Assembly (NCBI GenBank): GCA_008632985.1 | Contig: QPGO01000094.1 | Coordinates: 168,721 to 232,720, forward strand | Direction: 5' to 3' | Length of the DNA stretch: 64,000 bases | From: Psammoneis japonica | Lineage: Eukaryota | Shown here: piece by piece, positions 13,762 to 38,981 of the stretch | Layout: each line of letters begins with the position of its first letter | Position numbering within the stretch: the first letter of the stretch is position 1 | Translations under genes and position numbers: made by a program | Notes under the pieces: generated by a model | Databases searched by the model: none | What the model saw: the letters and a program-made list of their open reading frames with translations, nothing else | Told to the model about the DNA's origin: nothing

Positions 13762-14042
13762 CAGATGATGGGCCAAACATTTGCCAAAAAGGCCACAGTC
13801 CGGCACGCTGAAGTCATCCAAAGACATGGACGTCAGTCATTTTTCCGTTGAGACGACATGCCAGCCCATTTCTTGAACTTGAACTTGAGCCTGCAGCATG
13901 GCATTTGTGTGCTCGCAGTGAAGAACACCAGGTTCCCCTGTGCAGAAGATGCACCTTGGGTGCACCAGCACGCAGCGAGCATGAGGAGTGAGATGCTGTC
14001 TGTCTGTCTGTTGTGCTGCCGCACCAAGATCAGATTTGCACC

Positions 14043-17000: not shown

Positions 17001-17340
17001 AGTTGTGAAGAGTCCACCCTTGGTTTCCCAAGTTTTGGTGGCGGATTTCTTCATTCCCAACTTCCACATGAATTTGCACAAAATTGTGGTTGATGATGTT
17101 CTTTGTCAAGAAGAACATGCAGAAGCTTGTTTTTTGCTTTTCTCAGAGAAGCAGCCACATGAACAGCGACGGAGGGACTGGCGCTCCTTGAGTGGTGCAA
17201 ATCTTTGATGGGAATTGATCGGGGGTCCATTTTTCCAAATTGATGGTTTTGTTCACCAAGCATTTTAGAGTCACAATTTTCACTCTTGTTTTTACGTTCC
17301 TTTGTCAAGGAACTCGCTTCAACTGTTTTTGTGAACTGCC
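14043..17340 (-). mobile_element. Old hypermutated Ty3/Gypsy LTR retrotransposon (3' LTR 14043-14411, pol relics); same family as 25717-30292
   Basis: LTR aligns to 25717-26083, with an adjacent PPT-like CTCACCTCCCC. Protease relic VLLD...WETKGGLFTT...HVD...HDVIMEHD.MSSLGITLD and RT relic HPLPNIQEM. Order is protease then RT toward the 3' LTR. 5' part truncated. Confidence 0.85.
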
Positions 17341-20300
17341 TGGGTCATCATGGAGCTCAGCTCCTCACCATCGTGTCTTTCTGGTGCTTTCTGCTTTTGA
17401 CAACATTGTGAATTGCCTTGTGGTTTCTGCACAATTTCACAACAATCAAATGTGGCATGGTTTGTGTGGGGGCCTGCAAGTGTCATTCAGTGACAGCACA
17501 GTTCACAGCTTGTGTCACGGTCAGCCATGCGACGCACATGCGGACAGACTGCACCTCGTGGAGAACAGCTCGTGCTGACTCAGTGGGGATGATGTCGAAG
17601 ACACCTCTGATGTTGCTGACGTGGATGGGTCATAGACCGTAGCAGCAGTGAGCCTCTAAAGCTCACAATGTCTTCACAAGACAGCTTGCCAAAATGTGCA
17701 CTTTGCTCACAAGACCTTTCTTGCCATGCTCGGTCTCCTTGGCGGCAGGTCAAGACAGCCCTGCCACAGCACTGCAACAGGGATGCAATGAAGGACTGTG
17801 CTGTTGTGCTTTCTGTTTTGCGCTGTTGTGCTGCAAGCACATGTTGTGATAAAAAGTGCACCAAAGCGTGCATCTTGCTCACTCCCCTTTTTTTGCCTTG
17901 CTTGGCATCTGTCTTGACAGCCACTCAAGATGGCCCCGATGACAGGCAGTGTTTTGCAGGATGATTGCAGCTTGCAAAATTTGGGGTGGAAACAAGGGCA
18001 GAGCTTGAGTGCTTGCTTTTGTGTGTCATTCTGCAATTTCACATGATGATGTGTGAAAGATTGCCAAATGTGCATTTTGAAAAAGCTCAAAAAGAAGGAA
18101 ACGAATCAAAAGAAACAACAACAGAGGTGGGCTGCAGGGTGGTTGTGTGTTCAGAGAAAGTTTGCATGATCCCACTGTTGCAAAGCTGGTGAAGGCATCA
18201 AGAACAAATCCAAACGTGTCGGTCAAGAATGGCCAGATGAAGACTTCATGGTGTGTTCAACTTGTTGGCAAAAAGAAGAAAACCAACAAGTCATTTGCAG
18301 TTTGCTCCTCCTGCTCTGTTGAATGAGCCACATTGCAAACTGTTTCGATTTTGGGATCTTGGCGTTGCCAGAATGTGCTCCCACTGTGCTTTGCTCTTGT
18401 GCTCTGCACTCTGTTGATTAAGCCACATTGTGAACTGCTCGATTTTTGGGCTTTTTGTGTCACCATGGTGTGCTCCTGCCATGGCTTTGTAGTTTGTTCT
18501 TGCCACTCTGTCAACTGAGCCGACTTTTGGGCTCTTGACATTGCACCATAAAATGCTCCCACCACAGCTTTGTGGTTCACTCTTGCCCTTCTGTTGATTG
18601 AGTCATGTTGCAAACTGTCTCAACTTTTGGGCTTTTGGTGTTGCCACAGCATTCACTTTCTCTAGTGTCAGGTGTCAAAATCACCCCCGGCATGAAACAC
18701 ATGACACGTCACTTGTTGCAAAGCCAGTTTCCCTTGAGAACTGTCCTGCAAGTGTTGGTCTCAAAAAGACCAGACGGAATTTCTCTTCCTTCTTGTTGTT
18801 GCCATGCTTTGTCCCGCAAAAGCAAATCTTGCACTCCTTGTCACTGCATGAGGCACTGATGCCATCCCTTGTCCGCAAAAGTTTGGACACACCATGATCC
18901 CTTGCAAGGGCGGCAGTCTTCCCACTCTTTCACAGTTGTTGTGACTGCACCAGTCAAGCCTCCACATGCTGCATGTTTTCTCAAGGATGTCTGCAGCAAG
19001 GGACCACACTCCAGGAAGAAGATTCAGAGACACCGAGCTCACTCACAACAGAAAGCCTGTTGTCAGAGGGCAAGACAATCCAAGCCCATCTGTGTTTGAC
19101 AGACATCTTGGAAGATTCCAGTTTGGGTCATCTTTTGAATCATGTTTTGATGTGATCAAAATGGATTTGTTTGCACTGGAGTTAGACAAAATGTGGAGTT
19201 TGCCAAAAGTTCTGGATGAGATTGCAGTGCTGGGATCACTTGGACAGATCAAAACAGGTTGCAGCTTGTTTGCCAGTGGCTTGCCCTGGTCGTTCAATGT
19301 TTGAATCCATGCTCTTCCAACCTGGGGTCATTCCACACTTTCTTCTTGTGTGGTCATTGATGACCACAATTTGTTGACATGGGGTCATTGCTGGCTGGAC
19401 TGTCAAGAAGAGCCAAAAAGCAAGGACCATTTCAAGGCCCCAATTCAATTGATTCCAACAGGATGGTGACAAAAAATGCAACAAACAGTGTGAGAAACAT
19501 TTTGACAGCAACTGCAGTGCAACAACATCGCACACAACACTGGCATTGGAGTGACTTGCCAGAAGATTTTGTGACCATTTCACTTTGGTTGTCACCCTTC
19601 TGAAATCACAGTCATTCACAAGACACACTCTTGTGCAGCTCAATGCAAGCATCTGTTGCACCATTTATGAGGGGGTGAGGCATGGGCTGTTGGCATTGTG
19701 TTGTGGTTGGTTGTCTTCTTGTGCTGGTGTCCTCTTGTGTTGCAAGTTTGAGGTTTTTGATCACAAGGAAATGGTCAGCCCAAGACAAGGAAGAAGGCAA
19801 GGAAAAATCTTTGTGCACCAAGATCTGACATGGAGTGCAAGCCCAAAAGCCAAGTGCCATTGTCACATGGAGCACAACTCACCATGACAGCCATCATCAA
19901 TGATGGACAATGCGGGTGGCCAGAGAAAGCTCAATGAGCTCCTCATTGACAAGTGCATCTGTTGAATGACTCTTCTCCCAACTTGAGCTTGTTGTGGACT
20001 CAACTGGAGAAAATGTGCTGGAAGAGAACAAGGGAGTGTTGTCTCCTGCTTGTTCTCAAGTCCTCAAGACTGTGGTGGTGCCCAAGGGAGTCTGCTTTGC
20101 TTGTTGAATTTGGTGTGTTGAAGTGTGTCAGCAGCTGCGGGCTCCAGACAAGTCGACCGCTTGATGAAATGATCATGTCAGTTGCAACTGTGCAGCAAAT
20201 TGTGATGACAATCAATTTTTCCTTGTCTGGTTTCCTTGTCATTCCTTGTCAAGGAAAGTCAGGGTCAAATGAGGAATCCTCTACAATCGAAAAACCTGTG

Positions 20301-20650
20301 CAGGTTGAAAAGAATTTTCCGGGTCATTGATGCAATCGTGAGTGTCATGTGGGTCTGGCCTTTGTGTTCCACCGTGCATTGTGACTGAGACTCATCGTCC
20401 AATCTCTCTTTGCCCAGTCTCAATTGCTTCCAAGTGGCAAAACATTTGACAAAAACCCAAATGCATGGCGATCAAAAACTGCTGTTTTTGAAAATGGTCT
20501 GTTGCTTGCTCGGGTCTTTTCTCTGCACACCCAAAGGAACCCGGGTGTCTCCATGCACAACTCCCGTGCTTCCTTCCCCATTTCAAAAACTCAGCACCCA
20601 GGTGAGTGACACCTGCTGGAAGCCTTTTCATGAGGTCACTGCCCCCTTTG
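17340..20650. other. Hypermutated unclassified repeat/TE relic DNA
   Basis: Near absence of TA and CG. No motif I can assign. Confidence 0.45.
18315..18635. repeat. Degenerate ~90-95 bp tandem repeat, 3-4 units
   Basis: Recurrent CTCTGTTGAwTrAGCCACATTGyrAACTG...TTTTGGG at ~18315, ~18409 and ~18590, plus a partial unit at ~18505. Confidence 0.7.
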
Positions 20651-20655
20651 CAAGT

Positions 20656-20968
20656 GGTGCTTCTGGTGCAGGGGGTCAGAGCTTGAGATGTGGTGCCCAT
20701 GGGGGTCATTGGGGGAAAGTGCACAAGTGCCTTTCTGTGTGAACTTGACACCATGCCATGTTGGGCACTTTTGAAAGCTCTTTTCTGACCTTGAACAAAG
20801 GCCAGCAGTGCAACTCTACATGTTCATGGTGCACAGCCACCCCACAACCACACATCCCACACAACACAACACACAACAAACAACACAAGTCACTTGTTGC
20901 AGCCAACACCAAGTGAGTCTGAGAACAGCAACAGAACCCCAGCCCACTGGATCAAAGGGGGCCAACCT
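20656..20968. repeat. ~315 bp dispersed direct repeat, copy 1 (partner 23890-24208)
   Basis: CAGGGGGTCAGAGC...GATGTGGTGCCCATGGGGGTCATTGGGGGAAAGTGCACAAG...CCCAGCCCACTGGATCA.AGGGGCCAACCT shared. Confidence 0.9.
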
Positions 20969-23190
20969 TTTCATCACCTTCTCAGGCACAAGAACAACAA
21001 GTTGCAAGATTTGTCTCAGTGCCCACACAGAGCAAGTGCTCTGCTGAACATGAGTCATTCTTGAAGCTCCGCAGAGCTGCTCTGCAGAGCACCTTTTAAT
21101 TGCCACCAGCCTGATTGCTCACAAGTGTTCTGTTGCTTCTCTGTTGCAGGAGAAACGGTTCAGTGATTGTCATTGTGCAGGATGCATTCATCTCAATCTG
21201 TTGCCAAGGGACATGGCAGAGCCCCCTCTTGTGTCCCCACACTTTGGAAAGGCAGCCAAGACCAAAACAAGGGGCAACACCAAGGAAGAGATCAAGGTTT
21301 CTGCCCTTTGGTCCAAGCTGACATGCCAAACTTGTGAAGCTTCACAAGCACTGCATTGACCTGATTGAGATGGAAAACAAAGGCAGTGCAGTGCTTGGGC
21401 CCATGAACCCATCCCTTGGTTGCCACTCCAGGAAGAAAGACGTGTGTGGAGAGCTCGCACACTCTGCTGGTGCAGCCAGTTTTCTGCAGACATTCCAAGC
21501 CAGACAGGATGTTAGAAACCAGAACACCATCTTTGACCATGTTGAAGGCACGCCAAGGATGGACAGGAAGAGTGGCAAAGCAGTCAATGGTTGGAACACC
21601 AAGATTTTTGACAACAACATTTGTGGCGGCTGCCCTCCTTTGATCTCTGACATTGTGACAGAAAAGCAAAAAGTGCACAACTTTGTTTCCTTTTTGTTCT
21701 TGCACATTCACGGCCACTCCAACAGCTGTTTGGATCTCATGGCTGCTGCCTTGCTCAGGTTTTACAACAAAATGACCAATGTGATCAAGAGCAAACCACA
21801 TGGCAAGTGGTCGGAAATTTCCACCCATCCCTTGGTGAGTGTGGTGACAGATGCTTGCAGAAGAGCAAACATGTCTGAGTGCACCTTTGACGCATTCCAG
21901 AAGCAGGTGGGAATCCATGTGACATTGGGCCCATGGAATTCTGTGTGCAAACTCTGCAGCAAAATTGTCAGGCAATGAAAATGTCAATGATCGCCAACAG
22001 AAAATGAGGCAATTTTGCGAATGCACAAACTCGTCCACGATTGAAGTGCATCATTTTTGCTCAGCCAGGTGCACTCATCAGACATTGAAGGATGCAACTG
22101 GTGCATTGTTGTTCCCATAAATTTGTCATGCAAAACATCTGGGGCTTCGCAAAACAGCAAGTCTGGACCAATTTTTTGGAATGTCACATGTGGAAATGTG
22201 TGTGTGAAACATGCAATGAATGACAAAAAACAATTGTGTCACACATCAGCACTGCAAGCTCCCACCCAGGGCTGGAACAAGTCCTTTCAGGCATGGCAGG
22301 TGGAGGTGCACAGTGGTTTCATTTCAAGGAATCTTCCTTCCCTGCCTCTCAACTGCCATCCTGACTTGCAAACCCAGCTGGTTGATTGCCAGGCCCTCAT
22401 TTCTGTGCATCAGCACAGGCAAGGATCATGGGTGGACTTCTTGGTGAGTTTCGAAAATGCTCTGCAGAGTTGCTCTGCAGAAGATGCTCTCTGAAACATT
22501 GAAACCTCATTGATCTTGGTTCATTTGCCCATGTTCTGCAACTGACAACACCAGGTTGAGAGAAGAGCTGAGTGCCCTGCGTGGCACCAGTGAGCAGGAG
22601 CTGAAGAGCAAGATGGACAGGGTGGTGGATTTGTTGCTGAATGGGGGTGGCGCTGAAGGCATTCCTGCTCCAGCAAATGAGCCAGTGACACGCGGTTGCA
22701 CACGACATGCTTGGCACACAATGGAGGTGACACCAAAGGCAAGAATCCAGCAGAAATGTTTTTTGATTGGTTTGCAATCTCCACAGTGGGTGCAAATTGT
22801 GCAAGGCTTCAACAACAGGCAAGGTGAGACAAGATGTGAAAAGTGCACTCAAGTGCCACAAGGCATTGATTGATGTGCTGCTTTGTCTTGGGGGAAGGCA
22901 CCCACAACCATGTCAAAACTCTGAAGTGCCAAGCCATTTGCAACATTGGGAAAATGAGCTTGGTCAGCTTGGCTGTGATGCACTTGAGTTGGCGAAGTCA
23001 TTCTTTGCAGCCAAAGGTGCTGACAAAGATGACATCACAAATGTCTTCTTGGCAAACAAGCGTCCCCTCCATCTGCAAAAGCCAGTCCCTTCCAGATGAC
23101 ACACCAGAGAACAGCCCTTTCCAAAAAAGGTCAAAAGTGGAAGCAAGAAGAAAAGGAGCAGCAATGTTCAAATTGGTGAACCCCAATCAG
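20969..23190 (+). mobile_element. Crypton-like tyrosine-recombinase element relic, copy A (5' truncated; ~370 bp insert at ~21910-22280)
   Basis: CHSRKK (HxxR-like motif)...DVRNQNTIFDHV (expected catalytic Tyr position). Colinear with 32800-35370. Confidence 0.7.
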
Positions 23191-23889
23191 TGTTTGAGAA
23201 AGCAGGCTGCAAACTTCACCATCTCAGGGAGGACACATTCACACTCTGCACCCAGAGCACCTCTGCAGAGCACCAGCTGATTGGAGTGCTCTGCCGAGCA
23301 TCCAACGAGACACTGCAATGATCTGCAGAGCATTTGACGTCTGCAGAGTTGATCTGTGCAAGTGTGCCCTAAGATTGCACACAGCCAAGACATTGTTGCA
23401 GAGTTTCTGTCTGCACGCTGCTCAGATTGCTGCAGAGCTGCAATCTGCACACTGCTCTGATGCAAGCTGCTCAGCCTGCAGCTTGACAAGATTGTGCTTG
23501 TCAAGGATTGCAGTGCATTCTTTGTAAATTAAGCCATTGGCAGTCAGGGTTCGGGTGCTCTTGAATTCCAATGATGCACAAGGTTGAAGCCATTGCACGT
23601 GTGCCATGCCAGAGCTTGTGTTGCATGTGGATCCCACAGTGATTTCTCCAGTGCAACCCAGGTTGGCACCATGCAGGATCACATGGGGAGGCTCCTGGGG
23701 TCAGCGGGCCAAAACCAGGGGCAGCCCAGGGAGGTGCAGTTCAAAACCTCTGCACATGCGCAGAGGTGCACAAATTGTCTGTTGTCATCTGCACACGCAT
23801 TCGCACACTCAGAGTGCACACCTCTGTCTGTGCACTGCCCTTCGCGCGGGGTCACTGTCCCCTTTTTTTTGCTCCACATGCATGCACAT

Positions 23890-24208
23890 GGCACTTCCAG
23901 CACAGGGGGTCAGAGCTCAAGATGTGGTGCCCATGGGGGTCATTGGGGGAAAGTGCACAAGCACCTTTCTGCACAAACTTGACACCATGCTGTGTTGGGC
24001 AATTTTGACTTGCTTTTGAAACCTCTTTTCTGACCTTGAGCAAAGGTCAGCAGTGCAATTCCATGTGTTCCTGTTGCACAGCCATCCCACAACCACACAC
24101 ACCACACACAACACAACAAATGACACAAGTCACTTGTTGCAGCCAACACCAAGTGAGTCTGAGAACAGCAACAGAACCCCAGCCCACTGGATCAGAGGGG
24201 CCAACCTC
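23890..24208. repeat. ~315 bp dispersed direct repeat, copy 2
   Basis: Aligns with 20656-20968. Confidence 0.9.
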
Positions 24209-25716
24209 TCTCTGGGGAGTTGACCTCACCATGGTGGACATGCCACCACATCTTTTTCAGGTGAGTTCATTTGCACTGCATCACGTTCCAAGGAAGATGC
24301 TGCACCACTGCCCTTGTCTGTGTGCTGGTTTGTCAAGCTGTGTTGATCAATGCTCTGTGGAGCATCTTCAGGACTGTGCTCTCTGGAGCAGCTCTGCAGA
24401 GCACCCCTTTGCACTTGCCACATTGCCTGTCTCACCCTGCGCTGCTTTCTCATGCAATCCCTGGACTGCACCAAATCGTGCAGATGCCATCACACGTGCT
24501 GCTTGCCGTCAATGTCTCCAGTTCTTGCTGACTCTCACTTTGCCTCCAAAGTGTTGACAAAAATTCAGCAACAAGCTGTGACAGCCACATTCGCCAAATG
24601 TGGTCACAACAGGAACACAAAGCGCCTGATTGTCCTTTGTGGCCTGCAATCTCTTGGTGGTGGTGGATTTTGATCTCTTGATGTTGAGCAGGGCATTGCC
24701 CAAATGCAACAGCTGTTGAAACATTCTTGTGGTGCACAGCATCTTGTGCAAGACGACCAACCACATGCTGCGGTCCACATTGCCATTGCATGGAATCAGC
24801 TGCACTTGGGTGCGGGTGTCAGCTTCCTCAGAGATGTCAGCACTCCTCATCCACACAGCAAGTTGCTGTGGTTTGCATCAGTTTGGTCCTTTCCACAGTG
24901 CATTGGAGGACACACTGCACTGTCCCAAGATGGTGTCCTCCCCTTGCAAAGAGCCAACAATCAGTTTTTAATGGATGTTGCCCTGGAGTCACAAGAATTT
25001 TCTTCTCGAGAGCTCCAGTGGATCAATTGTTGCCGCTTGCATCTTTGGGTCCTGACAGTCTCAGACATTGCTCTGGCAAACGGGTGTTTCTCAGATGAAT
25101 CCAAAGTTTGTGGGGATCCCATGTGCCTCAGCAGCATCAGCACTCTCAACAACGTTGAACAGACAAAACTGTGCCACCGTGCATGGGGTCCTTGGATGCG
25201 GTCATGTGGGTTGTTGTGTCATCAAGACTCAGTTCGTCTGAAAGCTCCCTCAGGAGACTGGCCAGTGCCCCCATCGAAAATGAGGATGCAATGTTCTGCG
25301 CACTGGTCTCCCAAAGAGTCATGCTTGTGTGTTTGATCTCCATCAGGATTTGATGTTTTTCCAGTCCAGGACACTGTGACTGCGTTGCCACACCAGATCG
25401 AAATGGTTCCCTCCCCCTCTGACTCATCATTCCCAGTTGAGATTGTCTTCGTTGATGATGGCAGATGGAAATGCATCCCTCATTGCCTGAAACTTTTAGT
25501 TGAAACAAATCCACCCTTGCCCAATCTTTTTGCAGACCACTTGAAAGCATTGCCTTCCTGGGAGTCCTCTCTCTTTTCTGACATTGAGTTCCACATTTCC
25601 TTTTACGAACTTGTGGACCATTTTGCATCAAGTCACCTGTTGGCGGGGAGTGACAGATCTGCACTTTATCAGGACGCCACCTTTGGATGGACTGTTGCAT
25701 TCAATGGCAGACCCTT

Positions 25717-26083
25717 TGCACTATGCTCGAAGAACGAGTGTAAACGAAAGTAGAACAGTGTACGAAAAGTGGAAATTATAAGATTGAATTTTGCTCTGTG
25801 ATTTTTGGTTTCTCCGAACGAGTTCTCAATGGCCTAAAGCTTCTGTACTGCTTCTACAGACAAAAGGCCTTTCGGAGAATATATTCGTGACAACAGATTA
25901 TCCGGATACGATTGCCATTGACACGTAAGATGTCAACATCGTCAATCGATCGTATTTGCAATTCTCGACATCCGATCAACTCTGTGTGATCGTTCTGTCC
26001 TTTGTACGCATCCACGACTGTGGTACGATTGACATATAAATAATATATAATCATAAATATGTATATAACAGTCGCATACTGCA
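25717..26083 (-). repeat. 3' LTR
   Basis: TG...CA termini, adjacent PPT, near identity to 29926-30292. Confidence 0.95.
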
Positions 26084-29000
26084 TTCGCCTCCCTAATTGC
26101 ACATTAGAGTCATTTGTAAGTGGATTATTCGACGGACATCGACAGTGTCAATAATGTCTCCACTTTCACTGTATTGTGCCATTAGCAATGACTGTTGTTG
26201 TTTTGTATAGGCAATATAGGGCCGTTCCAATTTCCGAATGTCTTTTGAGAGTGACATTGTTTGTTTCTCACTTAATATGTATATATATAGTATTACGTCG
26301 AGTATTCTCATTGACGTTCTTGTTGATATGAACACAAGGACTAATTGTCCTGGAGTAAGTGTTTTTCCTGATATCGATTGTACATAGCATCGTGCCCAGT
26401 ACTTAATGTACGCTCTTAATTATGGCGTTCACTTACTTACTTGTGGATTTCATGTAGTTTGGCGGGCTTACTTTATATGCCATATTGCTCTGCTGCACTA
26501 CCACGTTTCATAAGTAATAATAAACGATGGTCAAAGATATTATGACCATTTCGTCTTGATAATCAATCCTGTGATGGTTATGAATTCCATTATGGATTTT
26601 TTTTTTTTGTACTTCAACCATCTATCAGTTGGATTTTAATCGTTATTTGGACGTTTCTTTCTGACATACCGGTGTTATTTTGTCATTCCGAAGGCACTGG
26701 TTTCGTGCACTAAGTGGATAAATGTCCATTTTTCTTTTCTTTTTTCTAGATCTTTGGCACATCTCGTGTGTCGACATGATGTATATTTTAATGTCTTGCC
26801 TCGTACATTGTACAATACAACCGTACGGGTGTTGTGAGATTGTCTTTTGCCAGTGTGAAGTGGATACGTATAATGTATACCAATCTGTCACTGTTTTTTC
26901 CTAAATCGTCCTTTAAAAAGGCGATTTTATCCTTGTGACATGAGCATTTTTCGATCTCGCTCGCCTCCACGAAAAGTGTTCGTATGATATGTCGCGTCCG
27001 ACAATTTGGAGGGTATGTCTTTATCCCGTTTTAACGGTAGGACATTGTCGTAGGATTCAATTTTCTATAGTAAGTCGGCTGATCGCGTCTATCGCGACGA
27101 TGTTCGCCTTGCCCTCGATGTATTTTATTTCGGGACTAGAATTCTGTATTCTAAGTCGTCAACGCATGACTTTGTCCGTTGTGTCTTATGATCCTTATAT
27201 GTATAAATCTGTTGGCCAAACAGTATATTTCGGAATTTTATAAGTGTTTTCACTATGGACAGAAGTTCTTTTTTCCGTTGTAACGTTTAATATTGAAATA
27301 CGTGTATGATAACAATATAGTTTTTGATTTGATACGCTCCATATTTTCGGAGACTTTTCGTTTCGTACTTGTACTTTTGCCGTTTGACCTTTATTGAGGT
27401 GGATTTGGCTAGAAATGTACAGGAGATCATTGAGACTACATGTCTTTATAGTAGTAACGTATATCGACAAGCTGTCGTAATATTCTTTACGTTTTGCTCA
27501 ATGTTGCGATTGCCGGAATCGCCTCCATTTTCTTTGTAATCGGATGTATACCGTTACGTATGGAAGTCTTGATAATTTTTTTCAAGTTAAGTAGTGAAGG
27601 ACTTTTGTTTTTAACCTTCTAAGCGACTGTTCTAGTCGTTTGAATGCCGTTTCAAGTTTTTCTTGTACAGGTGACATTTTGAAGTTATTTTCTGTCAGGT
27701 GTAAATGTTCATTCTTAGTCGTTCTGACAACTTTAAACCTGTCATGAGTTCGCTCATGTGTTGTATGAAAATATCTGGGGCTCTATAGATTCTCATTGGA
27801 AGTCTATAGTACTCAATTTCCCCCACGGCAATATTCTGAGGTGAGCACAACGTGTGCTTTTTTTGATTTTACATTGTGGTGTTCCATGTTTGAATCGTAA
27901 TTTCATTTTTAAATCTTCAATCTTTCATAATTGGTTAAATTCCTTTCAAATGGACGCCTCCAAAGACTATGATAGGAGAAGGTTCTCACACGTCGCGTAA
28001 TCGCGTCAGATTTTTCACGGTGAGATCCACTGGTTCTTCCTATTCATGTCCAATGAACTTTTTCAAAAGGATTTTAAACCTCATAAGAAGGAGACTGAGT
28101 GGTTTATCTTCTTTTGGTTTAGATGTATTGCTGTAGCTGTCACTTGATTAGAATCGACGGCGTGATAATGTGAGTCGAGAACCATCGGTCTCGTTATTAA
28201 CTCTATTCACTGTGTGATATTTTTCAATGTGATCGGTATTCAGCTGGAACATTTTGTATCGAAGAGTGCATCAACATTCTTCATAGGGTAATTGCTTCAT
28301 TCCCATTTGATTTCTTCAATTGCGTAGTCTAGTATGATTGCAAGACTGGACATTAAGTCGCGTCCCATGATCATATCATTCGACCTTGAAGGGTATTTGG
28401 TGTTATTGACATATACTGTTTGAATATCAGTAAGTCTTAAATTTCGCATAGTGAGAACTGAATTCGGTGTTTACTATCAGTCGTAAAGAGCTCACCCTTG
28501 GTTTCCCAAGTTTTTGGTGGCGGATTCTTGTGTTCTCAACTTTCGCACGAATTTGCGCAAAATTATGGTTGACGATGTTCCGTTATCGATAGGAACACGT
28601 AGATGCTTTTTTTTTTCTCCTTTCCCAAGGAAGTATTCATATAAATGATGACTCCTGGACTAGTATGAATTATTTCTGCCTTTTTTCTAGGCTTCCTAAT
28701 ATCCAGTAAAGCATATAATTCGTGAATAGACCAAAATTATTCTTCGGATTCAATCTGGATCATCCGATCAAATTGGTATTTTTCTTCACTGAGGGTATCA
28801 GAATCTGATTCTTTGCCCTTATGCTCTTTTTCTTTGTTCAAGGAACTCGCTTTGAGTGTTTTTTGAACCGCCTGATCAATCATGACGTTCATCTCTTTTT
28901 TTGCGAGCGGCATTTTCGTTATCGCGACGCGACCGCGTGCGATTGCCATTTGAACGGCGCATTTTTGGGTCTCTTTCAGAGTCACCCTTGCACTCTTTTG

Positions 29001-29925
29001 CTAGTTCATTTTTAGAATAGCTTCAATCCGTGATGTAGGTATTCTTTTTTCAAAGATAAGACCTTGCATTCACTTTGGATTGTTCTGGTACCATGTGAGA
29101 GACCATTTTTGGAACCAAATTTGGAACCTTTTTTATTTTGGAACCAACTGCGCTATCAGAGCCTGAGTTGATATGTTTTTTCGTCACGGACGTCATGAAC
29201 GACCTTTAGATGACTCAAAACTTAATCAGCTCATCAAGGATGAGTTGCAATAGTTGATTGTTTTGGACAGTAGACTGATGCTGCCATCCTTGCGGTGCGA
29301 GTGATAGCTGATAAATCAGCGCTCGGTTTCCCGCTAGATTCGACTTAGAATCCATCTGAGGGTCGTATAGACTCTCATCGTTGACCTCTTGGGTCTATCA
29401 GAGGCTTTCTTGCTGTTGAGCGGCTCTGGTTTCTTCAGGTCGTCTCGAAGATAATTTCCCTGATTCTGAAGTGCATTTCCTCGGAGGACATGAGTTATGA
29501 GACGCTTGAGGTACTTTCCAACGATTCCATCTTGCTCTTGGACTCGAGGATCATCGATTCGGTCTCAAAAAACTCTCCAATAGTCTCTCCTTGCATGGTA
29601 GACATATTTCTCGGATCTGATCGACTCGGAACTTGCATTTTCTGCAACCATGACTTGGTGTAGATTTTTTGATAATGCGGTGTACTTGAGAGCCCTTGAT
29701 CCTTGGGTGCTTGGAATAGACCGTATTAGAGCGAATCCTCTTGTTTGGTAGACGAAAAACAGCGTTCCATCTTGAGGTACTGCTCGGCTTGAGCTTCTTC
29801 CGCTCGGAAATCGATTCCAGCAGAACTGATGCGATTCGTTCCTGTTTATAGAAGAATTTGCAAAGGCACATTAGTTAAAATCTTCATTTTCCGTGCTTTT
29901 TACCTTCTGTGGTGTGTATACACAA

Positions 29926-30292
29926 TGCACTATGCTCGAAGAACGAGTGTAAACAAAAGTAGAATAGTGTACGAAAAGTGGAAATTATAAGATTGAATTT
30001 TGCTCTGTGATTTTTGGTTTCTCCGAACGAGTTCTCAATGGCCTAAAGCTTCTGTACTGCTTCTACAGACAAAAGGCCTTTCGGAGAATATATTCGTGAC
30101 AACAGATTATCCGGATACGATTGCCATTGACACGTAAGATGTCAACATCGTCAATCGATCGTATTTGCAATTCTCGACATCCGATCAACTCTGTGTGATC
30201 GTTCTGTCCTTTGTACGCATCCACGACTGTGGTACGATTGACATATAAATAATATATAATCATAAATATGTATATAACAGTCGCACACTGCA
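29926..30292 (-). repeat. 5' LTR
   Basis: TG...CA termini, followed by TSD CCTT. Confidence 0.95.
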
Positions 30293-32049
30293 CCTTGGTG
30301 GATTGTGCTGGTCTGGTGTTTGGTCAATTGCCATCATCCTGTCAAGCTGAGGCGCATGGTTTCCTTTCACTGATTCAGTTCTTCTGTTGTTTGATTGAGT
30401 TCTGCAAGATGTCAAAGTGTGAAGGAGTCAACAACTGGTGCGACAACAAGGCCTTGGTCCAAGTCCTTTCCAGACTGTCCCACACCAGCCACCCCTCCAT
30501 TGACCTGTTGGCACAAGAGCATTCTGATGGAGACTTTCATCTGCATCAGCATGATGCCAATGTTCTTTCTTCCGACTGGGATGTCATCAATGAAATGCAC
30601 CCAATGCTTGAAGTCATTTCTCAGGTTCTTAATCCCTCCTCCCCTGGTCAGGCTCCGTCAACAGCTTGGGCAAAAGGACACCAGGACAGACAGGCTCTGG
30701 TTGAAACCCTCCCACTCAATGCACAAGCAAACGTGCGTGCTGACAAGTTGGCAGGACAACACCAGGGACAATGCGACTCAGACACAATGGAGCTGATCCC
30801 CCTTCCCCATTGCCAATCATGCCTGAGCCTCACTGATGGAACGGTCACTGCAGGACTGAAATCTGTGGTCAGATGTGCTGCTGCAGCTCCCGCTCTGCTG
30901 GCATGTGTTTGGGAAAGGAACGACTGGGATGAATCGATCACAGAAAAGATTGACTTGAAGGTTCATGCAACATCAGTGTGCAGGCATTCCAAGAAACACG
31001 TTTCCACTGTGAAGCTCATCCATGAGCTCCTCCCAACAAACAAGATTGCTCATCGACACAACCCCGTTCAGCCACATCATTGTCTTGTGTGCGAATGCCC
31101 TGTGGAGGATCGAGACCATGTTCTGGGGTGTCCTGCCAATGAGGCCTGGCATCATAAATTCCTGCAAGGTCTGCGAAAATGCTGTGACAAAATTGATGCA
31201 ATGCCACCTCTTCGCGATCTGCTGTTGACTTCACTCAAAGCATGGCCAAGAGGTGAGATGCAGTGTGAATCTGACATCACCCTGATGTTGCGAGCACTGT
31301 GGAAAGCCCAGTCAGAGATGGGATGGTGACAAGAAGTGTTCAATGGAAGACACTCCACCCTTTGGAACGTTTTTCAGGAGATGCACCTTTGTAAGATGGG
31401 CCTGTTGGAGAAATGCAGGAAGGAGAATCGACCCCCTCCAGTTTGGGGAGTGCAGATGGGAACTCAAATTTGGAAGTCCTGGTGGGAACTGTGGGAAGAA
31501 CACAATGAAAAGGTTCACGGTCACAGTGCAGAGTCAAGGAAATCATCTTTGTGCTGTCAGGCAGAAGCCGAGCTCATGGCTGTTTACAACAGCAAATGAC
31601 AGGATTATTTGGCTAAAGGCAGAGAGGTGCTGATGGATTCAGTTGACGAACACATGTCCCACTCTACATTGTGGATCATGAATTGGGTTGCTGTGGTCAA
31701 ACCACGTCTAAAAGACAGCCTTAAGAAAGCGAAGCGCGAAGTGCTTCATGGCACTTGCTCAATCGCTGGCTGTTTTGGATGGGTGTCATCTCACGGTGAC
31801 ACCCCGTCCGGCTGATCCCAACAAGCTTCCGCCGCACTTAACAGTGCACTGGAAGTGTGGGCCAGCCAGCGCCAGCCTGGCTGGCAAAGGAGTGATGGCA
31901 CTTAAAACACAGATCTGGTTTTTTTTTGCTTTCTCATGCAATCCTCCAAGGACAAATGCTGCCCATTGTGATTTTGCTGGTTGGGAAGAATCCATGATTG
32001 TTGTGGAACAAGAGCAACAGTCACTGTTGGGCACTGTTTCCCTCAATGA

Positions 32050-35000
32050 CAGTGGTCAGCAGCTGACTTGGGAGGAAGCTGCGTGCTCAATGCTGCCCCA
32101 TTTCATGTGCGTTGCAACCACTGATCTGCAGAGCACCCCAATGGAGAATGGTGATTCTGCCTCAGCATGCACAAGTGATCATGGCACCTCTGGTTTGGTG
32201 CTTGCTCCCTGTGGTGAGCAGGGGGCTGAGGAGACAGAGAAAGACAAAAAGGAGAGAAAGTGCCTTGGTCACTTCAGGCGCCACTTGTTGCACTGCAGGA
32301 ACACACGTGTGGCCGCAGAAGATCTCCGCCATGAAGACATCACCCATGATCTCATGAAAGGGTTCACCAAGTGTCTTGCCAAGGATGCCAGGTTGCAGTT
32401 CAAACTGGAAGGGGACCATCTCTCTTTTGGATTGGCTGCAGGCTGTGCCAGCACTGCCAAGATGCATTTTGTGAACAAGTTCCCTGACTGTCCAACCCCG
32501 CCCACTCTGCAGGACTCAAAGTGGACCAGCACGCTCAATGGAATGAAGGGCATCATCTTGGATTGTTGCAGGATGGAAGGAACTGATGTTGTGAAACCCC
32601 ACAAAGCCTCAACTGAGGAAGACAGGGAGGCCTGTGCTGCTGTCTGCCTCCATGAAGGAGATTCGGAATCTGCCAAGTTTTGCTTTCATTCGGTGTCCAT
32701 GCAAGCCTGTGTTGGCCGGAGCACCAAAGTTGCTCTGTCACAGAAAGCCAATCTGTCTGTGGAGGTGCAGCACAAGGAGACACTCACCTGTCCTGTCATC
32801 ATTCATTGCCTTCTCAGGCACAAGAACAACAAGTTGCAAGATTTGTCTCAGCACCCGCACAGAGCAAGTGCTCTGCTGAACATGAGTTGTTCTTGAAGCT
32901 CTGCAGAGCTGCTCTGCAGAGCACCTTTTAATTGCAACCAGTCTGACTGCTCACCAGTGTTCCATTGCTTCTCTGTTGCAAGAGAAATGGCTCAGCAATT
33001 GTTGTTGTGCAGGATGCATTCATCTCATTCTGTTGCCAAGGGACATGGCAGATTCCCCTCTTGTGTTCCCATGCTTTGGAAAGGTGGCCAAGACCAAAAC
33101 AAGGGGCAACATCAAGGAAGAGAGCAAGGTCTCTGCCCTTTGGTCTGAGCTGTGTGCCAAACTTGTTGTGAAGCTTCGCGAGCATTGCATGACTTGATTG
33201 AGATGGAAAACGAAGGCCCGCCCATTTTTTTTCCCAAACGTCCATCATTTTTTTTTTGGCGGCAAGCCCAATGTTTGTGTTCAGACCTTCACACATTTTA
33301 TGACAAGCAATCAATGCTTGTGAGTTGTCGATCAATGAAGTTAAACATCCCAAAAATGCAAATGCTTTGTGTGTGTCAGATTGCATGGTGTGGACAACCC
33401 ACATGGAACAACACACCTGCAAACACAAATGTTTGACATTTCAAATTTTCCACAACTTCTCAAAATGCAACAACAATGGTGACTGCAAATGCAACACACT
33501 CCATCAACAACCACAAACTCACCATGGCACTGCCACATGTCAACAGCTTGTAATTCATTTCAAATGCATGTGCCTTGCTGTGCTTTGAAATTGATTCATT
33601 GCAGCAAAAACAGCTGAAATGTTCAATTTTCTGCCCATTGCTTTTCGACCACACACAAGTCAACAATGAGCTTGTTGCACTCTCACATGTCAATTGTGCT
33701 GCACACAAGTTGACAAGATGTGATGTGCTGTTGATTGTTGTGGCTCTTTGGGGCAATGCCATTGAGAAAATGGTGACCACAGAGTCACCATGGTGAGGTG
33801 GTTTTTGCGGTTTCCAGCTGCAGTGCACCAACGGTGAACTTGCACTGAATCTGAGTCATGCTTGTTGAGTTGGCATGGCTGCCGCTTTGCGCATCATGTG
33901 CCCACCATTCTCAGTGCTGGGGCTGGCAGCAAAAAAAAAAGGCAATTCACCAGGAAAAAAAAACAACTAAGAAATGAAGGCAAGCAGTGCAGTGCTTGGG
34001 CCCTTGAACCCATCCCTTGGTTGCCACTCTGGGAAGAAAGACATGTGCAGAGAGCTCACACTCTGCTGCAGCTGGTCTTTTGCAATGTTCTGAGCCGGCT
34101 GGGATGTTAGAAACCAGAACACCACCTTTGACTGTGTTGAAGGCATGCCAAGGATGGACAGGAGGAGTGGCAAAGCAGCCAATGGTTGGAACACCAAGAT
34201 TTTTGATGACAACATTTGTGGTGGCTGCTCTCCTTTGATCTCTGACATTGTGACAGAAAAGCAAAAAGTGCGCAACTTTGTTTGCTTTTGTTCTTGCACG
34301 TTTGCAGCTGCTCCAACAGCTGTTTGGATCTCCTGGCTGCTGCCTTGCTCAGGTTTTACAATGAAACAACCAATGTGATCAAGAGCAAACCACATGGCAA
34401 ATGGTTGGAAATTTTCACCCATCCCTTGGTGAGTGTGTTGACAGAAGCTTGCAGAAGGGCACACGTGTCCAAACGCACCTTTCAGACATGGCAGGTGGAG
34501 GTGCACAATGATTTCATTTCAAGGAATCTTCCTTCCCTGCCTCTCAACTGCCACCCTGACTTGCAAACCCAGCTGGTTGATTGCTGGACCCTAATTTCTG
34601 TGCATCAGGCACAACCAAGGATCATGGGTGGACTTCTTGGTGAGTTTTGAAAATGCTCTGTGGAGCAGCTCTGCAGAAGATGCTCTCCGGAGCATCAAAA
34701 CTGCACTGATCTTGGTTCACTCACCCACATGTTCTGCAGCTGACAATGCCAGGTTGAGAGAAGAACTGAGTGCCCTGCATGGCACCAGTGAACAGCTGAA
34801 CAGCAAGATGGACAGGGTGGTGGATTTGTTGCTGAATGGGGGCGGCGCTGAAGGCACCCCTGCTCCAGCAAATGAGCCAGTGACATGCAGTTGTGCATGA
34901 CATGCTTGGCACACAATGGAGGTGACACCAAAGGCAAGAATCTAGCAGAAATGTTTTTTGATTGGCTCCAGTGCAATCTCCACAGTGGGTGCAAATTGTG

Positions 35001-35370
35001 CAAGGCTTTGACAACAGGCAAGATGAGACAAGATGTGAAAAGTGCACTCAAGCACCACAAGGCATTGATTGATGTGCTGCTTTGTCTTGGGGAAGGCACC
35101 CACAACAGAGTCAAAACCCTGAAATGCCAAGCCATTTGCAACATTTGGAAAATGAGCTTGGTCAGCTTGGCTGTGATGCTCTTGAGTTGGCAAAGTTGTT
35201 CTTTGCAGCCAAAGGCACAACAAAGACATCACAAAGACCTTCTTGGCAAACAAGCACCCCTTCCATCTGCAAAAGCCAACCTCTTCCAGACAACACACCA
35301 CAGAACAGCTCTTTCCAAAAAGGTCAAAAGTGGAAGCAAGAGGAAAAGGAGCAGCAACGTGTTTCAATGA
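32050..35370 (+). mobile_element. Crypton-like tyrosine-recombinase element relic, copy B (insert at ~33210-33975)
   Basis: LSFGLAAGCASTAKMHF, VGRSTKVA (GRxxE-like first Arg), HSGKK, RAGWDVRNQNTTFDCV. Colinear with copy A. Confidence 0.7.
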
Positions 35371-38300
35371 GCAGTGATCACCTCCATTTTGTGGGGAAAA
35401 AACCATCAAATGATGAAGTGGATGGATGTGTTTCAATGATCATGTCTCTCCCTGAAACACTGTCATCCGAACAAACTCTTGGTGTCTTGCTTTCCTTTTC
35501 ATGCACAAGGAATTTGGTTCTGCTGTTCCTTTTCTCCAAAAATGTGATTTGAGAAAAAAGCCGTGAAGCTCATTTGTGGGTGCACGTGTTCAACAGTTGT
35601 TTCTCAAATCATGTTTTTGGAGAAAAGGAACAGCAGAAGCAAATTCCTCACATGCAAAAAGGGGAGCAAGACACTGATTAAATGTCCCCCCATGTGCCCA
35701 ACTCAGACAGTTTGCACGTTCAGTCAAAAAGACAAACAAAGGGGTCCTGGGCAGCCTTTCATCAGCTTCAGACCCTGGATTGCCCCCATGTGTGTTCAAC
35801 GGACACCTTTGCTTGAACACAGTGTCCAACAGGTGTCACAAAGCTGTTGGCACACAGGGACATTTAATCAAAAGATGAATGAAGGTTGGGGTCAGAGTCC
35901 CTGTGATGACCTTTCTTTGTGCAAACATCCTTGGAGCCATGTGCATGATGGACCACATCAGGTGGGATGCCATGCACGCAAGCAAGGGATGAAACACACT
36001 GTGACATCATCCAGTCAACAACAAACCCTGACAAATTGAGCAGCCAACTGGACTTGCGAGAGATGGCAGGAACCTTTCTCCTCCATGGAACTTTGTGTGG
36101 TGTTGCTCTCCCATTGGGCATCATCACATGTTGTTGTCAAAAGTGAAGGCAGTTTGTGGCAAGAGAACATGTCTTGGGACATGCAGGAAGCAGAGCCAAG
36201 CAGAGGCTTTCTTCTCCAGTGTCCCAACTTGACATGTCTCATGCTGCTTCCAAGGGATCTCGCCATGACCACCTTGGGGATGACTTTGACACAACCATTG
36301 CACTGCACACCAAAACAAAGGTTCTTCACAAGCAAAACAAGAGCCTTCAGAAACAACAAATGGACCAGCTCTCTTGTCCATTGTCACCAATGGTCAGGCA
36401 AAGAAGGAGCCAGACACTGAGACAACCCACAATGGCAAGATCTGCACTTGCAGCATGTTTGCAAGCCAAGACTTTGACTTGGAGTTAAATCAAGAATGCC
36501 CAAGAGACTGGTGGGTTGGAAGCTGAAAAAGGTCCCATTGCAAGCTGTTTGTTCCCATGGCAGCACAGCAGCGTGCTTTCAGCTGTGATGTCAAGAAGGG
36601 CCACAAATCATGCAACAGCTTGATGTCCTTTCTGAACTTTGGCACATGTCAGCAGACCATTTCTGCCACTGTTAACTGCCCACAGCTTGGCAGTGCTTCA
36701 TTCAACATCTGCTGGTGCAGTCTCCTCATCTTGCTCCCTTCAAGCAACCACATTGGCAGTGGCGGGAGGCAGCAATCTTCCCCATGCCCTTGACTGCCAT
36801 CCTGTCTCATGGCAGTGCACAACACACGCATCATGGCAGACCATGCTGCCATTGCTGTGGGCTTCCAAATGTCTGCCTTGATGGCACCACTTTTGTCAGC
36901 TGGTGTCAGCAGCACACATTTTGTCAGCATTCATTGGCATTGTTGCTTTCACAGCAACTCAAAGTCATGGCAGACACAAACTGACAACAAGTGGCAGAAG
37001 GGATGGCAGCCCTCAGCCATGCAGACCTGATGCCACTCTGCTCTGCCCTGCTTGCCAAGTGACTCTGCATCCAACACAACAAGCACTGACATCACTCTGT
37101 CTTCTTTTTTCACTTGAGCTCTCTTTTTCAACTGATCAACTAACTCGCAAAACCAAGCATCGCGGCTGTTCATTCTGGCGAGCACATGAACTTGACACAG
37201 TGGCAGACCAACCCAACATGATGCAAGCAGCAGCAAAAGGATTGGCCCTGTTGAGAATGGATGGCACTTTGCATCTGTCCAGGCAGACAGGTGCCACAGA
37301 TGCTGTGACACATTGGCGATGAGTTGCCGCAGGTTGGTTGGGGTGTCCGCAGCAGCGCAGGTTGCTTTCCACTGGCACTGGTGCCAGATGGTTCATGTGG
37401 ATGTGCACTGAAATGGACCCCAGCTGCTGGACTGTTTGCCTGTTGTGTGGCCCTTGTCACCTTTGTCACGTTGATTGTGTGGCACTGAAGTGTTCATTTC
37501 TCACCCTTTCTTGGAAGCCCCACATGTGTTGAGGCTGCTTCTGCTTCTGTTGTGGTGTGGACCGACTGACCAGCACAAGAAACTGACAACAATTCACAAT
37601 TTACAAGGAGCCGCTGCATGGCCATGTTGGGTGGTGCTGAAAAAGGATGCCCCCTCCTCCACAGCTGAGTGATTTGCCTCAAAGCCAACAACCAACCGCA
37701 CACTCAGGACCACAGACCAAAGTCAACACTGCAGAGGACAATCCACAAAGCTGCCAGCACCTTTTCATGGCTCTTTTGAGTGCTGCAGTGCAGCATTGGT
37801 GCATCAGCAGAACTGCAGAACTGGAGTTGTAGATGACAACACTGTCATGTGCACTCAGATCACAATGCAAACATGCTGCCAAATGCGCGAAATGCGCTGC
37901 GTGTGTGCTTTCTTGCCACTCTGCCGCGTGCACTTTGTGGGGTCTTGGCCAGGGTGGGGCCAGTTGGTTGTGCACATTTGGGTTCGATGTGGCCACCCAA
38001 CTTGGTGGTTGGTGCGAGCAGAAGTTTCAAAAAGCAAAAAACACGCGATGGTCAAAATGTTGTAAAATGACACAAAACAACAAACAATGAGAAGAAACCC
38101 AACTTTGCTTGGGAGTGCAGCACACAAACATTGTCCAATCACATTGATCTTCTCTGGCACAATGCCGGCAAGCAGATCAGTGAACAATGCTCGAGTTGCT
38201 CGCCATGGTGTTGTTGTGTGTTGCCGTCATGCTGCTGTTGCACGCGAAGGGCTGGGTTGCACATTGTCTTTTTCGGCAGCGGCAGATGTTTTGCCACATT

Positions 38301-38440
38301 CAATCTGCAAACATTTTGAGAAGTGCTTTGGGGCGACCCTTGAACGGCATGTTTCGGGGTGTCCCTCACTTTTTTGAATTTGGGCATGCATCTCTGCAAG
38401 ATCAAAGAAAGAGTTTGATGACATGTAAAAACCTTGAGAG
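35370..38440. other. Hypermutated unclassified relic DNA
   Basis: TA/CG depleted, with overlapping Cys/His-rich spurious ORFs. No assignable motif. Confidence 0.45.
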
Positions 38441-38605
38441 ACATGCATAAATTTATCTTCCATGTTGTAGGCCACGTAGATTGTGTGCCGGCGGAAAATC
38501 CACCGCATGTCAACCCACTCAGTAGGAATTTTTCGTGTACTCTACTTACACCTCATACACGTACACACCCCTACATAGTCTAATAACCGCGCACACGTGC
38601 GCGAG

Positions 38606-38733
38606 ATTACCATTCCGTGTACTTTATTACCATTCTGTGTACTTTATTACCATTCTGTGTACTTTATTACCATTCTGTGTACTTTATTACCATTTTGCGT
38701 ACTTTATTACCATTTTGCGTACTTTAATACCAT
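38606..38733. repeat. 20 bp tandem repeat (ATTACCATTCTGTGTACTTT), 6 full units plus a partial unit
   Basis: Units start at 38606, 38626, 38646, 38666, 38686 and 38706. No spacers. Confidence 0.97.
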
Positions 38734-38981
38734 ATGCATTGTGCGTGCGTACTTTGAGTAGTGGATGAGCCGCCTAGCCTCGATAAACAATGCCATCACC
38801 GCGTTTCTCGATGGCAAATGGCAACAAAAAGAACAGCAGCAACGCTTGATCGAACGTAATCATACGACAACAGCACATACGGAACATTTTACATTGCCAT
38901 TGGCTGTACGAGCACAAAAAGCGCCAGTACAACAGCTCGCGTCCTCCGTTGTAGCAGCACAGTACAAAACAAAACCTCAAA

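Follow-up and report, generated by a model that had tools for sequence, protein, structure and literature searches.

Background

To our knowledge, fungi are in practice the only organisms in which repeats are known to undergo targeted point mutation, C being changed to T there and TA made. In repeat-induced point mutation (RIP) the change is CpA to TpA (C:G to T:A only), so that TA becomes enriched and GC falls, and the process is triggered by recognition of repeats before meiosis and needs a RID-type methyltransferase. For the ascomycete fungi, transitions in repeated DNA are described in parts of PMC2621366 and PMC7296669. The present report concerns a pattern of the opposite direction in the diatom Psammoneis japonica, found in a 64,000-nucleotide stretch of contig QPGO01000094.1 (assembly GCA_008632985.1, positions 168,721 to 232,720, forward strand; hereafter the window), where a young long terminal repeat (LTR) retrotransposon at 25717-30292 interrupts a long interspersed nuclear element (LINE) within a block of DNA that is depleted of both TA and CG.

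Retroelements can be edited by ADAR, which acts A-to-I on RNA with a 5' U/T preference, or by APOBEC, which acts C-to-U on complementary DNA (cDNA), and in these systems one strand is marked, before insertion. Somatic hypermutation combines the action of AID at C (WRC) with polymerase-eta errors at WA motifs. The two LTRs of a retrotransposon are identical at insertion, and LTR divergence is the standard means of dating such elements. Pre-integration editing of retroelements of the ADAR/APOBEC type is treated in part of PMC4866542. With respect to diatoms, sections of PMC9998398 report that transposable elements (TEs) are CpG-methylated and that many species carry DNMT4 genes related to fungal RID, the function of which is given there as unknown; these genes are a lead and not evidence. 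In searches of the full-text literature, no account of repeats changed from TA to CA/TG came to light, either for diatoms or for other organisms.

Composition of the block and spectrum of conversion

The converted block was delimited by dinucleotide windows and has a left part at 13450-25716 and a right part at 30293-38400. When the element is excluded, the block (~13.45-38.4 kb) comprises 20,425 bp with only 68 TA and 290 CG, compared with 2263 CA and 2350 TG, the latter two being symmetric between the strands. Windows of 1 kb gave observed/expected (o/e) ratios of 0.01-0.09 for TA, 0.08-0.38 for CG and 1.7-2.0 for CA/TG at a GC content of 0.42-0.52, the TA o/e of genic windows being 0.45-0.7. 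The retrotransposon within the block has a TA o/e of 0.76, a CG o/e of 1.19 and a GC content of 0.37-0.42, and 311 TA are still present in the whole element. Each LTR has 29 TA, 20-21 CG, 22-23 CA and 28 TG, and at least 56 of the 58 TA of the two LTRs remain. Both edges of the element were found to be base-sharp, with 3 TA in the 517 bp outside the left edge vs 12 within the element's initial 184 bp, and its final 143 bp hold 14 TA vs 1 in the 608 bp that follow. An earlier sequence-only reading of this DNA had described an element with base-sharp edges inside a converted LINE, a description borne out by these counts, by the o/e windows and by the LINE relatives described below.

The young insertion provides an internal control, as one family can be observed in one block before and after conversion. 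An older, truncated and converted copy of its LTR family, consisting of one LTR and ~2.9 kb of internal sequence, was identified by BLAST at 14043-17363 on the minus strand (73-84% identity). When the pair was aligned, 169 of the 217 TA of the young copy were CA or TG in the old one (85 CA and 84 TG, with 8 kept), as were 91 of its 128 CG (47 TG and 44 CA, with 24 kept). The old copy has thus lost TA more completely than CG (96% vs 81%). CA was kept at 117 of 146 places and TG at 166 of 232. The changes depend on the neighbouring base, with T>C reaching 44% before A (9-13% in other contexts), A>G 42% after T (11-16%), C>T 40% before G (9-15%) and G>A 35% after C (5-12%). A preceded by A, with strands pooled, was changed at 64 of 586 places (11%), which is equal to other contexts. 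On the basis of these comparisons, a strand-symmetric process of TA to CA/TG and CG to CA/TG converted the host DNA before the element inserted. A polymerase-eta-like WA motif was also considered and was dropped, as AA/TT contexts are not elevated.

The direction of change is fixed independently by the residues encoded in the block. Its open reading frames (ORFs) have 0.1% Tyr vs 2.6% in genic ORFs, 6.0% vs 1.7% Cys and 5.3% vs 2.4% His, and Arg is at about half of the genic level; since Tyr is lost and Cys and His are raised, the change ran from TA/CG to CA/TG. The TA left in the block (13450-38450) are not spread evenly over contexts, 21 of the 68 being TTAA and 58 of the 68 having a preceding T or a following A. 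In the old LTR copy TTAA was kept at 4 of 16 places vs 4 of ~200 for other TA. TTAA therefore looks refractory to conversion, being comparatively spared. A TA cluster at 31585-31722 was examined as an unconverted island, a reading that was dropped as the cluster consists of residues in TTA/TAA context.

Action in place and edges of the block

The block contains converted LINE-like repeats which allow conversion to be placed relative to duplication. Copy 1 (20669-23167) has partners at 32802-35360, which is copy 2 as aligned with copy 1, and at 23903-24207, and the pairs 20970-23167/32802-35360 and 20669/23903 are 88-91% identical. Dinucleotides at which CA faces TG numbered 10, 13, 10 and 7 in four aligned segments of converted copies, and these doublets made up 20/41, 26/64, 20/77 and 14/26 of the mismatch columns. 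As a CA-vs-TG doublet is the product of independent conversion of one ancestral TA or CG, conversion took place in place after duplication. The doublets are fewer than full independence predicts (an estimate from the composition of the young element), and part of the conversion would thus predate duplication.

The left edge of the block lies in a duplicated Spt5 3' end with its downstream DNA (13299-13756, minus strand), which aligns with 46837-47293. Conversion of 13299-13756 is partial up to ~13450 and full beyond. The copy of the fragment at 13450-13756 is converted, whereas the corresponding part of the functional gene copy, 46980-47293, is unconverted; in the 150 bp across the boundary both copies show partial conversion (4 and 2 sites). 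A second, small converted block with a graded edge was identified at ~45750-46980 by dinucleotide windows and the Spt5 alignment, the windows giving 45.75-46.75 kb. Since the conversion boundary cuts through the duplicated Spt5 fragment, the process is domain-limited and was not acquired before integration; its edges are graded over ~150 bp and are not bound to transposon ends. The repeat pair 13299/46837 was also considered as the LTRs of a giant element with transcript-limited conversion, and this was rejected, as what is repeated there is the Spt5 3' end, which lacks TG..CA termini, and as both copies show partial conversion in the left part.

Several other features were observed around the block. 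The segment at 13450-13836 (vs 46980-47664) is a converted pseudogene fragment of the Spt5 C-terminal KOW region at the block's left edge. The intact Spt5 gene (minus strand, ~47.1-51.0 kb) adjoins the second small block, where conversion ends ~125 bp before the stop codon, and its coding sequence lies in two overlapping minus-strand frames (48913-50028 and 49818-51005), a sign of an intron or a frameshift. A TA-rich, unconverted tandem array of ~8 copies of the 20-bp unit ATTACCATTCTGTGTACTTT occupies 38586-38745, precisely where the block ends on the right. Between the two converted blocks, 38955-43014 contains three consecutive long plus-strand ORFs (387, 388, and 522 aa) with no Pfam family, a TA o/e of ~0.3 and normal CG, which may represent a later insertion or a new mobile element. 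Genes of the window outside the block include those for a NUBPL-type ATPase, Spt5, and bromodomain and RRM proteins, and together with the named relatives of the ATPase they assign the window to a diatom.

Structure of the retrotransposon and its host LINE

The retrotransposon is complete, with two LTRs of 367 bp that are identical at 364 of 367 positions (99.2%). Its purine-rich tract AGGGAGGCGAA, read from the sequence as a polypurine-like tract on the minus strand (26084-26100), abuts the LTR at 26084, and the element is therefore read on the minus strand; the LTR at 25717-26083 (direct repeat with TG..CA ends) is its 3' LTR and the direct repeat at 29926-30292 its 5' LTR, both on that strand. 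The LTR termini are TG..CA (TGCA...TGCA), and a 4-bp target-site duplication, CCTT, lies outside both (25713-25716 on the left, 30293-30296 on the right). A TGG-type primer-binding site beside the LTR was not recognised by eye, without tRNA comparison. The internal region of 3.8 kb (26084-29925, minus strand) was assessed by a six-frame Pfam scan and by ORF lengths. It gave RT_RNaseH as its sole match (E 0.013, minus strand), which agrees with the orientation and marks a faint Ty3/gypsy-type RNase H remnant. All six frames carry stops and the longest ORFs are ~100 aa; no gag-pol ORFs were found in the element by the Pfam scan and the ORF list. In view of the stops and of this single match, the element is classed as a non-autonomous derivative.

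Deletion of 4580 bp (the element and one CCTT) brings back the reading frame of the host. Joined across the empty site, 24674-25716 and 30297-31329 (both plus strand) form a single frame of 692 codons with 1 internal stop, the upstream part having been recognised by this frame, which has only 2 Tyr. The only Pfam match of the host frame is a weak zf-RVT (E 0.016) in the C-terminal part, and Pfam found no reverse transcriptase (RT) or endonuclease in the ORFs of the converted block. An exhaustive HMMER search with the residues from 30298-31329 retrieved 1007 relatives at E<=1e-3 (best E 5e-54). When six long relatives were scanned, Exo_endo_phos (AP-type endonuclease) was found in 2 (P0123 and P0154), RVT_1 in 1 (P0165) and nothing in 3, the domain-bearing proteins being 1347-1951 aa in length. 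Because relatives carry AP-type endonuclease or RVT_1 domains, the interrupted host is classified by protein homology as a probable LINE ORF2, an identification made only via these relatives. Five Tyr columns that are conserved in the relatives show H, H, C, V, and L in the window copy (0 of 5 kept), and of eleven conserved Arg columns 4 are kept, with Q, Q, H, H, and C among the rest. None of the best 150 relatives has less than 0.7% Tyr, and the median of the relatives is 3.3%.

Environmental relatives of the host LINE

Dinucleotides were compared in 79 metagenome loci encoding relatives of the host LINE ORF. Seven of these have a TA o/e of 0.07-0.26 with CG at 0.37-0.58 and CA/TG at 1.5-1.7, and 4 more have TA at 0.39-0.47. 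Depletion of TA and of CG is correlated among the 79 loci (Spearman 0.68), and none with TA <0.3 has CG >0.6. Four loci (L069, L026, L071, and L013) combine a CG o/e of 0.38-0.48 with near-normal TA (0.52-0.61). CpG loss can thus occur without the TpA arm, and the converse was not seen among these loci. Converted domains with sharp edges were found in L049 (~position 2000) and L022 (~position 5500). The conserved 22-base word of the retrotransposon's LTR gave 0 matches in the metagenome contigs scanned.

Thirteen of the loci (L022, L034, L044, L046, L047, L049, L050, L053, L059, L066, L073, L075, and L077) belong to one LINE family, with 86-98% identity to the reference copy L034. The proportion of TA converted per copy, scored at 30 robustly ancestral sites, was 0, 3, 7, 7, 10, 33, 36, 36, 60, 64, 64, 71, and 79%; selection favours sites retained in several copies, so only the ordering of these values is safe and the absolute figures are rough. 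CA and TG outcomes are roughly equal at the 30 sites. Most of the copies, at low and high conversion alike, have a private background divergence of ~2-4%; L075 and L044, two of those with 33-36% conversion, reach 6.6-7.0%. The process is gradual or partial, and it is copy-dependent. As TA conversion ranges over 0-79% at similar private divergence (~2%), it depends on the locus and not on age alone.

The three differences between the LTRs

Alignment of the LTRs confirmed that they differ at exactly the three sites named in the sequence-only reading, namely 25746 G/29955 A (site 1, CG vs CA), 25756 C/29965 T (site 2, CA vs TA) and 26077 T/30286 C (site 3, TA vs CA). All three are transitions inside pyrimidine-purine (Y-R) steps, and nothing else differs between the LTRs. 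At site 1 G accounts for 74% of family depth at 29955 and A for 26%; as the read majority has G, the A is derived (CG to CA). At site 3 the old converted LTR has T followed by G, and because T is kept there the ancestral state is read as TA, with the C at 30286 derived. Sites 1 and 2 are both CA in the old LTR, which is uninformative on direction.

Read evidence was taken from three contig sets from one sample, possibly that behind the assembly, the library type of which is not on record. Of the 3896 contigs aligned from all three runs, 3881 came from run X1. Depth over the element was 8,000-39,000 vs ~58 for unique flank contigs; depths over the element are sums over family members and served only for rough copy number. 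As element depth far exceeds that of the unique flanks, the family probably has hundreds of copies (roughly 500 LTR copies). By likeness to the young copy the contigs form a continuum, with 636 at >=99%, 1060 at 95-99%, 1435 at 90-95% and 750 at <90%. Most variant places of the contigs relative to the young copy are A>G (137) or T>C (153), compared with 56 C>T, 49 G>A and 101 transversions. The young copy's TA at 25780, 25900, 26877, 27489, 27734, 28041, and 28476 (7 of the 7 places listed) face a TG or CA on which the family majority and the old copy agree, which suggests, as the simplest reading of the alignment, conversions inherited within a lineage that kept transposing. X1 contigs with a depth of ~58-62 match the converted flanks at 25558-25744 and 30296-30675 with 0 differences. 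The left-junction contig (25558-25744) has 28 letters in the LTR and ends 2 bp short of site 1; among the contigs listed, none bridges the right junction and none carries a whole LTR haplotype. One contig joint (25566 to 30295) was considered as an empty site and was left unused, since it skips 4728 bases instead of the expected 4580 and its shorter side spans just 22 letters.

The rate of the process can be estimated by simple arithmetic from the old copy and the environmental copies. With TA survival of 8/217 at ~20% background divergence, and 60-79% conversion at ~2% private divergence, TA and CG mutate ~15-60x faster than other sites. At such a rate three Y-R transitions out of three are expected with a probability of ~0.6-0.9, and ~0.3-1 ordinary LTR differences are expected, of which none was seen. 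If all three sites were polarised TA/CG to CA/TG, the chance of the pattern under random substitution would be 0.003-0.02. Continued activity is thereby favoured with a likelihood ratio of ~10, which is worth noting but falls short of proof; three LTR differences are too few to show that the process is still running.

The sequence-only reading had taken the three differences as the mark of a mutator that is still active, gradual and possibly invading from the flanks, and the LTR pair as a clock. Gradual action is upheld by the graded block edges and by the environmental LINE copies with 0-79% of TA converted. Present activity has gained weak support, with two sites polarised as expected and one unpolarised among only three sites. 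As to the two TA-to-CA changes which it placed 40 and 7 bp from the outer junctions, the positions are correct (25756 and 30286), and the direction holds for 30286, by the old LTR, while 25756 is unpolarised. Invasion from the flanks found no support. Under a post hoc threshold of 40 bp from an outer junction, at least two of three changes would lie that close with a probability of 0.03; only two sites are involved, one of them unpolarised, the change at site 1 is 30 bp from the inner edge of its LTR, and in the first 50 bp of the left LTR 4 of 5 TA and 4 of 4 CG are intact. Spreading from the flanks is plausible in principle, since block edges are graded, but for the young element it is not supported. 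The clock is shaky, as environmental TA conversion of 0-79% at an equal private divergence of ~2% makes it locus-dependent.

Most likely explanation and alternatives

It is probable, and the most likely of the readings considered, that the young element landed in an already converted block and that low-dose conversion has continued on it. On this explanation the LINE sat in a TE-rich block already rewritten almost completely by a strand-symmetric, dinucleotide-specific process, which acts in place on DNA and turns TpA to CpA or TpG (A:T to G:C) and CpG to TpG or CpA (C:G to T:A), until CA/TG are the sole remaining Y-R steps. A non-autonomous element from a family with hundreds of copies then inserted in LINE ORF2 with a 4-bp target duplication, and it is essentially unconverted, probably because it arrived after conversion of the block. 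Conversion since insertion would amount to at most ~3% of TA and 2% of CG per LTR, and the LTR differences would be products of that process. The TpA arm needs A to G (or T to C) in DNA and, within silenced chromatin only, may work by enzymatic modification or deamination of bases. Candidates are enzymatic adenine deamination and, at symmetric TpA sites of silenced chromatin, a modification of T or A that is mutagenic. The CpG arm is probably deamination of 5-methylcytosine in methylated TEs, given that part of PMC9998398 reports diatom TEs to be CpG-methylated.

A number of points weigh against this explanation. The chemistry proposed for the TpA arm is putative. At site 2 the family is split ~55% C/45% T (25756/29965) and the old LTR has CA, so that the direction is undecidable; if the T is derived, the change is CA to TA, contrary to the signature. 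A distance of 10 bp separates sites 1 and 2, both of which are polymorphic across the family, and a single ectopic gene-conversion tract or a polishing error could be the source of both. Site 3 is missing from the 40 variant places listed (462 further places exist) and thus has no read check. At 25900/30109 and several internal places the young copy's base never occurs in the contigs, so the run does not fully reproduce the copy, and the 7 of 7 sites described above would equally fit CA/TG-to-TA changes in the young copy's lineage. The element may simply not be a target of the process. In addition, by the environmental series a copy can be unconverted without being new, and the process is not a uniform clock.

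If the mutator stopped before the insertion, or ignores the element, the three differences would be ordinary transitions, one of them CpG decay, that fell by chance in Y-R steps. This is unlikely without being far-fetched. Y-R steps hold 54.5% of LTR bases, every transition within them exchanges TA or CG for CA or TG or the reverse, and the chance that three of three random substitutions are compatible with the signature is 0.02-0.16 (0.05 at a transition share of 0.67), which makes the pattern suggestive and not significant. The many intact TA (at least 56 of 58 in the LTRs, 311 in the element) fit a mutator that is absent or indifferent, as do environmental copies at ~2% private divergence with 0-10% TA conversion, by which unconverted copies exist without being new. 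However, no difference fell among the ~45% of bases outside Y-R steps, no transversion occurred, and two sites are polarised as in the signature; the CG left in the block (290 in 20.4 kb) and CG-vs-CA/TG differences between converted copies further indicate that the CpG arm is unfinished and recent. That some or all three differences are consensus or polishing errors, or short ectopic gene-conversion tracts from family members, is improbable. Such an origin would suit a family of hundreds of copies in which both alleles are common at 29955 and 25756/29965, and would suit the closeness of sites 1 and 2, but all three sites are at most 40 bp from a unique junction, where reads can be placed unambiguously, nothing else in the LTRs differs, and the difference-free contig 25558-25744 crosses the left junction, though it ends 2 bp before site 1.

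Two explanations would do away with conversion as such. Base modifications give systematic miscalls in some long-read consensus sequences, and both-strand miscalls of modified heterochromatin bases could mimic a mixture of CA and TG, which would make the whole pattern a sequencing artefact. This is very improbable: X1 contigs (depth ~58-62) match the converted flanks exactly, with the library type unrecorded and the sample maybe the same, environmental assemblies of other origin bear the signature too, the divergence between converted copies is that of real sequences, and protein homology is kept (E 5e-54) with Tyr replaced by His or Cys. Reverse polarity, by which the block would be near-ancestral and the young lineage mutated from CA/TG to TA as in fungal RIP, is hardly credible. 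It would account for the AT-rich composition of the element (GC 0.37-0.42), for its stops in all frames and for the 7 of 7 listed sites at which the old copy and most of the family have TG or CA opposite a young TA. It leaves unexplained the young CG facing CA/TG in the old copy (91/128); a Tyr-free LINE ORF2 is not ancestral when the median of its relatives is 3.3% Tyr; heavy mutation after insertion would split the LTRs, yet only 3 of 367 positions differ; and the element's TA o/e of 0.76 is close to the 0.45-0.7 of genic windows, the reading being already contradicted for the block.

The probable course of events, an element inserted in converted DNA and since then lightly converted, leads to a wider and more tentative proposal. 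A living mutator, confined to chromatin domains, may be present in diatoms and in the eukaryotes behind the environmental contigs, changing TpA and CpG to CA/TG in silenced repeats at ~15-60x background per TA and creeping tens to hundreds of bases into new insertions, so that young LTR pairs could time it; its TpA arm would be without counterpart among known genome defences. As a hypothesis, a mutator shown by the LTR pair to be alive and invading has modest support. Many such LTR pairs would yield its rate, its present activity and its spreading behaviour. A DNA-modifying or DNA-editing activity of a new kind, linked to silencing, is implied. The process would explain why old diatom repeats escape homology searches, as in the converted RT missed by Pfam, and both LTR-divergence dating and dinucleotide statistics would be distorted in such genomes.

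Comparison with known systems

Somatic hypermutation resembles the process in that one system gives both C:G to T:A and A:T to G:C, the latter with a TA hotspot. It differs in that here A after A is not elevated, cytosine changes are CpG- and not WRC-specific, and no transcribed immune locus is involved. With ADAR/APOBEC editing the process shares A>G with a 5' U/T preference and clusters of transitions in retroelement copies. However, TA to CA (85) here equals TA to TG (84), a duplicated gene fragment is cut by the boundary, and divergence of copies follows their duplication; the strand symmetry and the evidence for action in place exclude RNA or cDNA editing ahead of insertion.

Decay of CpG driven by 5-methylcytosine is similar in its symmetric change of CG to TG/CA, its confinement to silenced repeats and its gradual course, and loci with loss of CG only (L069, L026, and L071) resemble it. 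Such decay leaves TpA alone, whereas here the loss of TA is more complete than that of CG (96% vs 81%). As in standard LTR dating, 3 differences in 367 positions mark a young insertion, but the rate here is context- and locus-dependent, and divergence is not time unless TA/CG sites are separated.

RIP is similar in several respects, namely transitions only, dinucleotide specificity, action on both strands and in place after duplication, copies mutated independently, a short leak past the repeat and the destruction of ORFs. Action that is in place, independent between copies and on both strands is seen in the CA/TG doublets and in the 2263 CA vs 2350 TG of the block. The TpA excess that is the hallmark of RIP is replaced by the opposite, with a TA o/e of 0.01-0.09 and 169 of 217 TA changed to CA/TG. 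TpA is destroyed here by A:T to G:C together with CpG, within domains with sharp edges and with GC unchanged near 0.46-0.52 and not lowered, and the pattern is found in a diatom and in independent environmental assemblies. The host is a diatom and not a fungus, and it holds an untouched young member of a many-copy family, which RIP would not allow after a cross. The process is RIP-like in its logic and fails RIP's defining chemistry, and it is classed here as a form of targeted repeat mutation.

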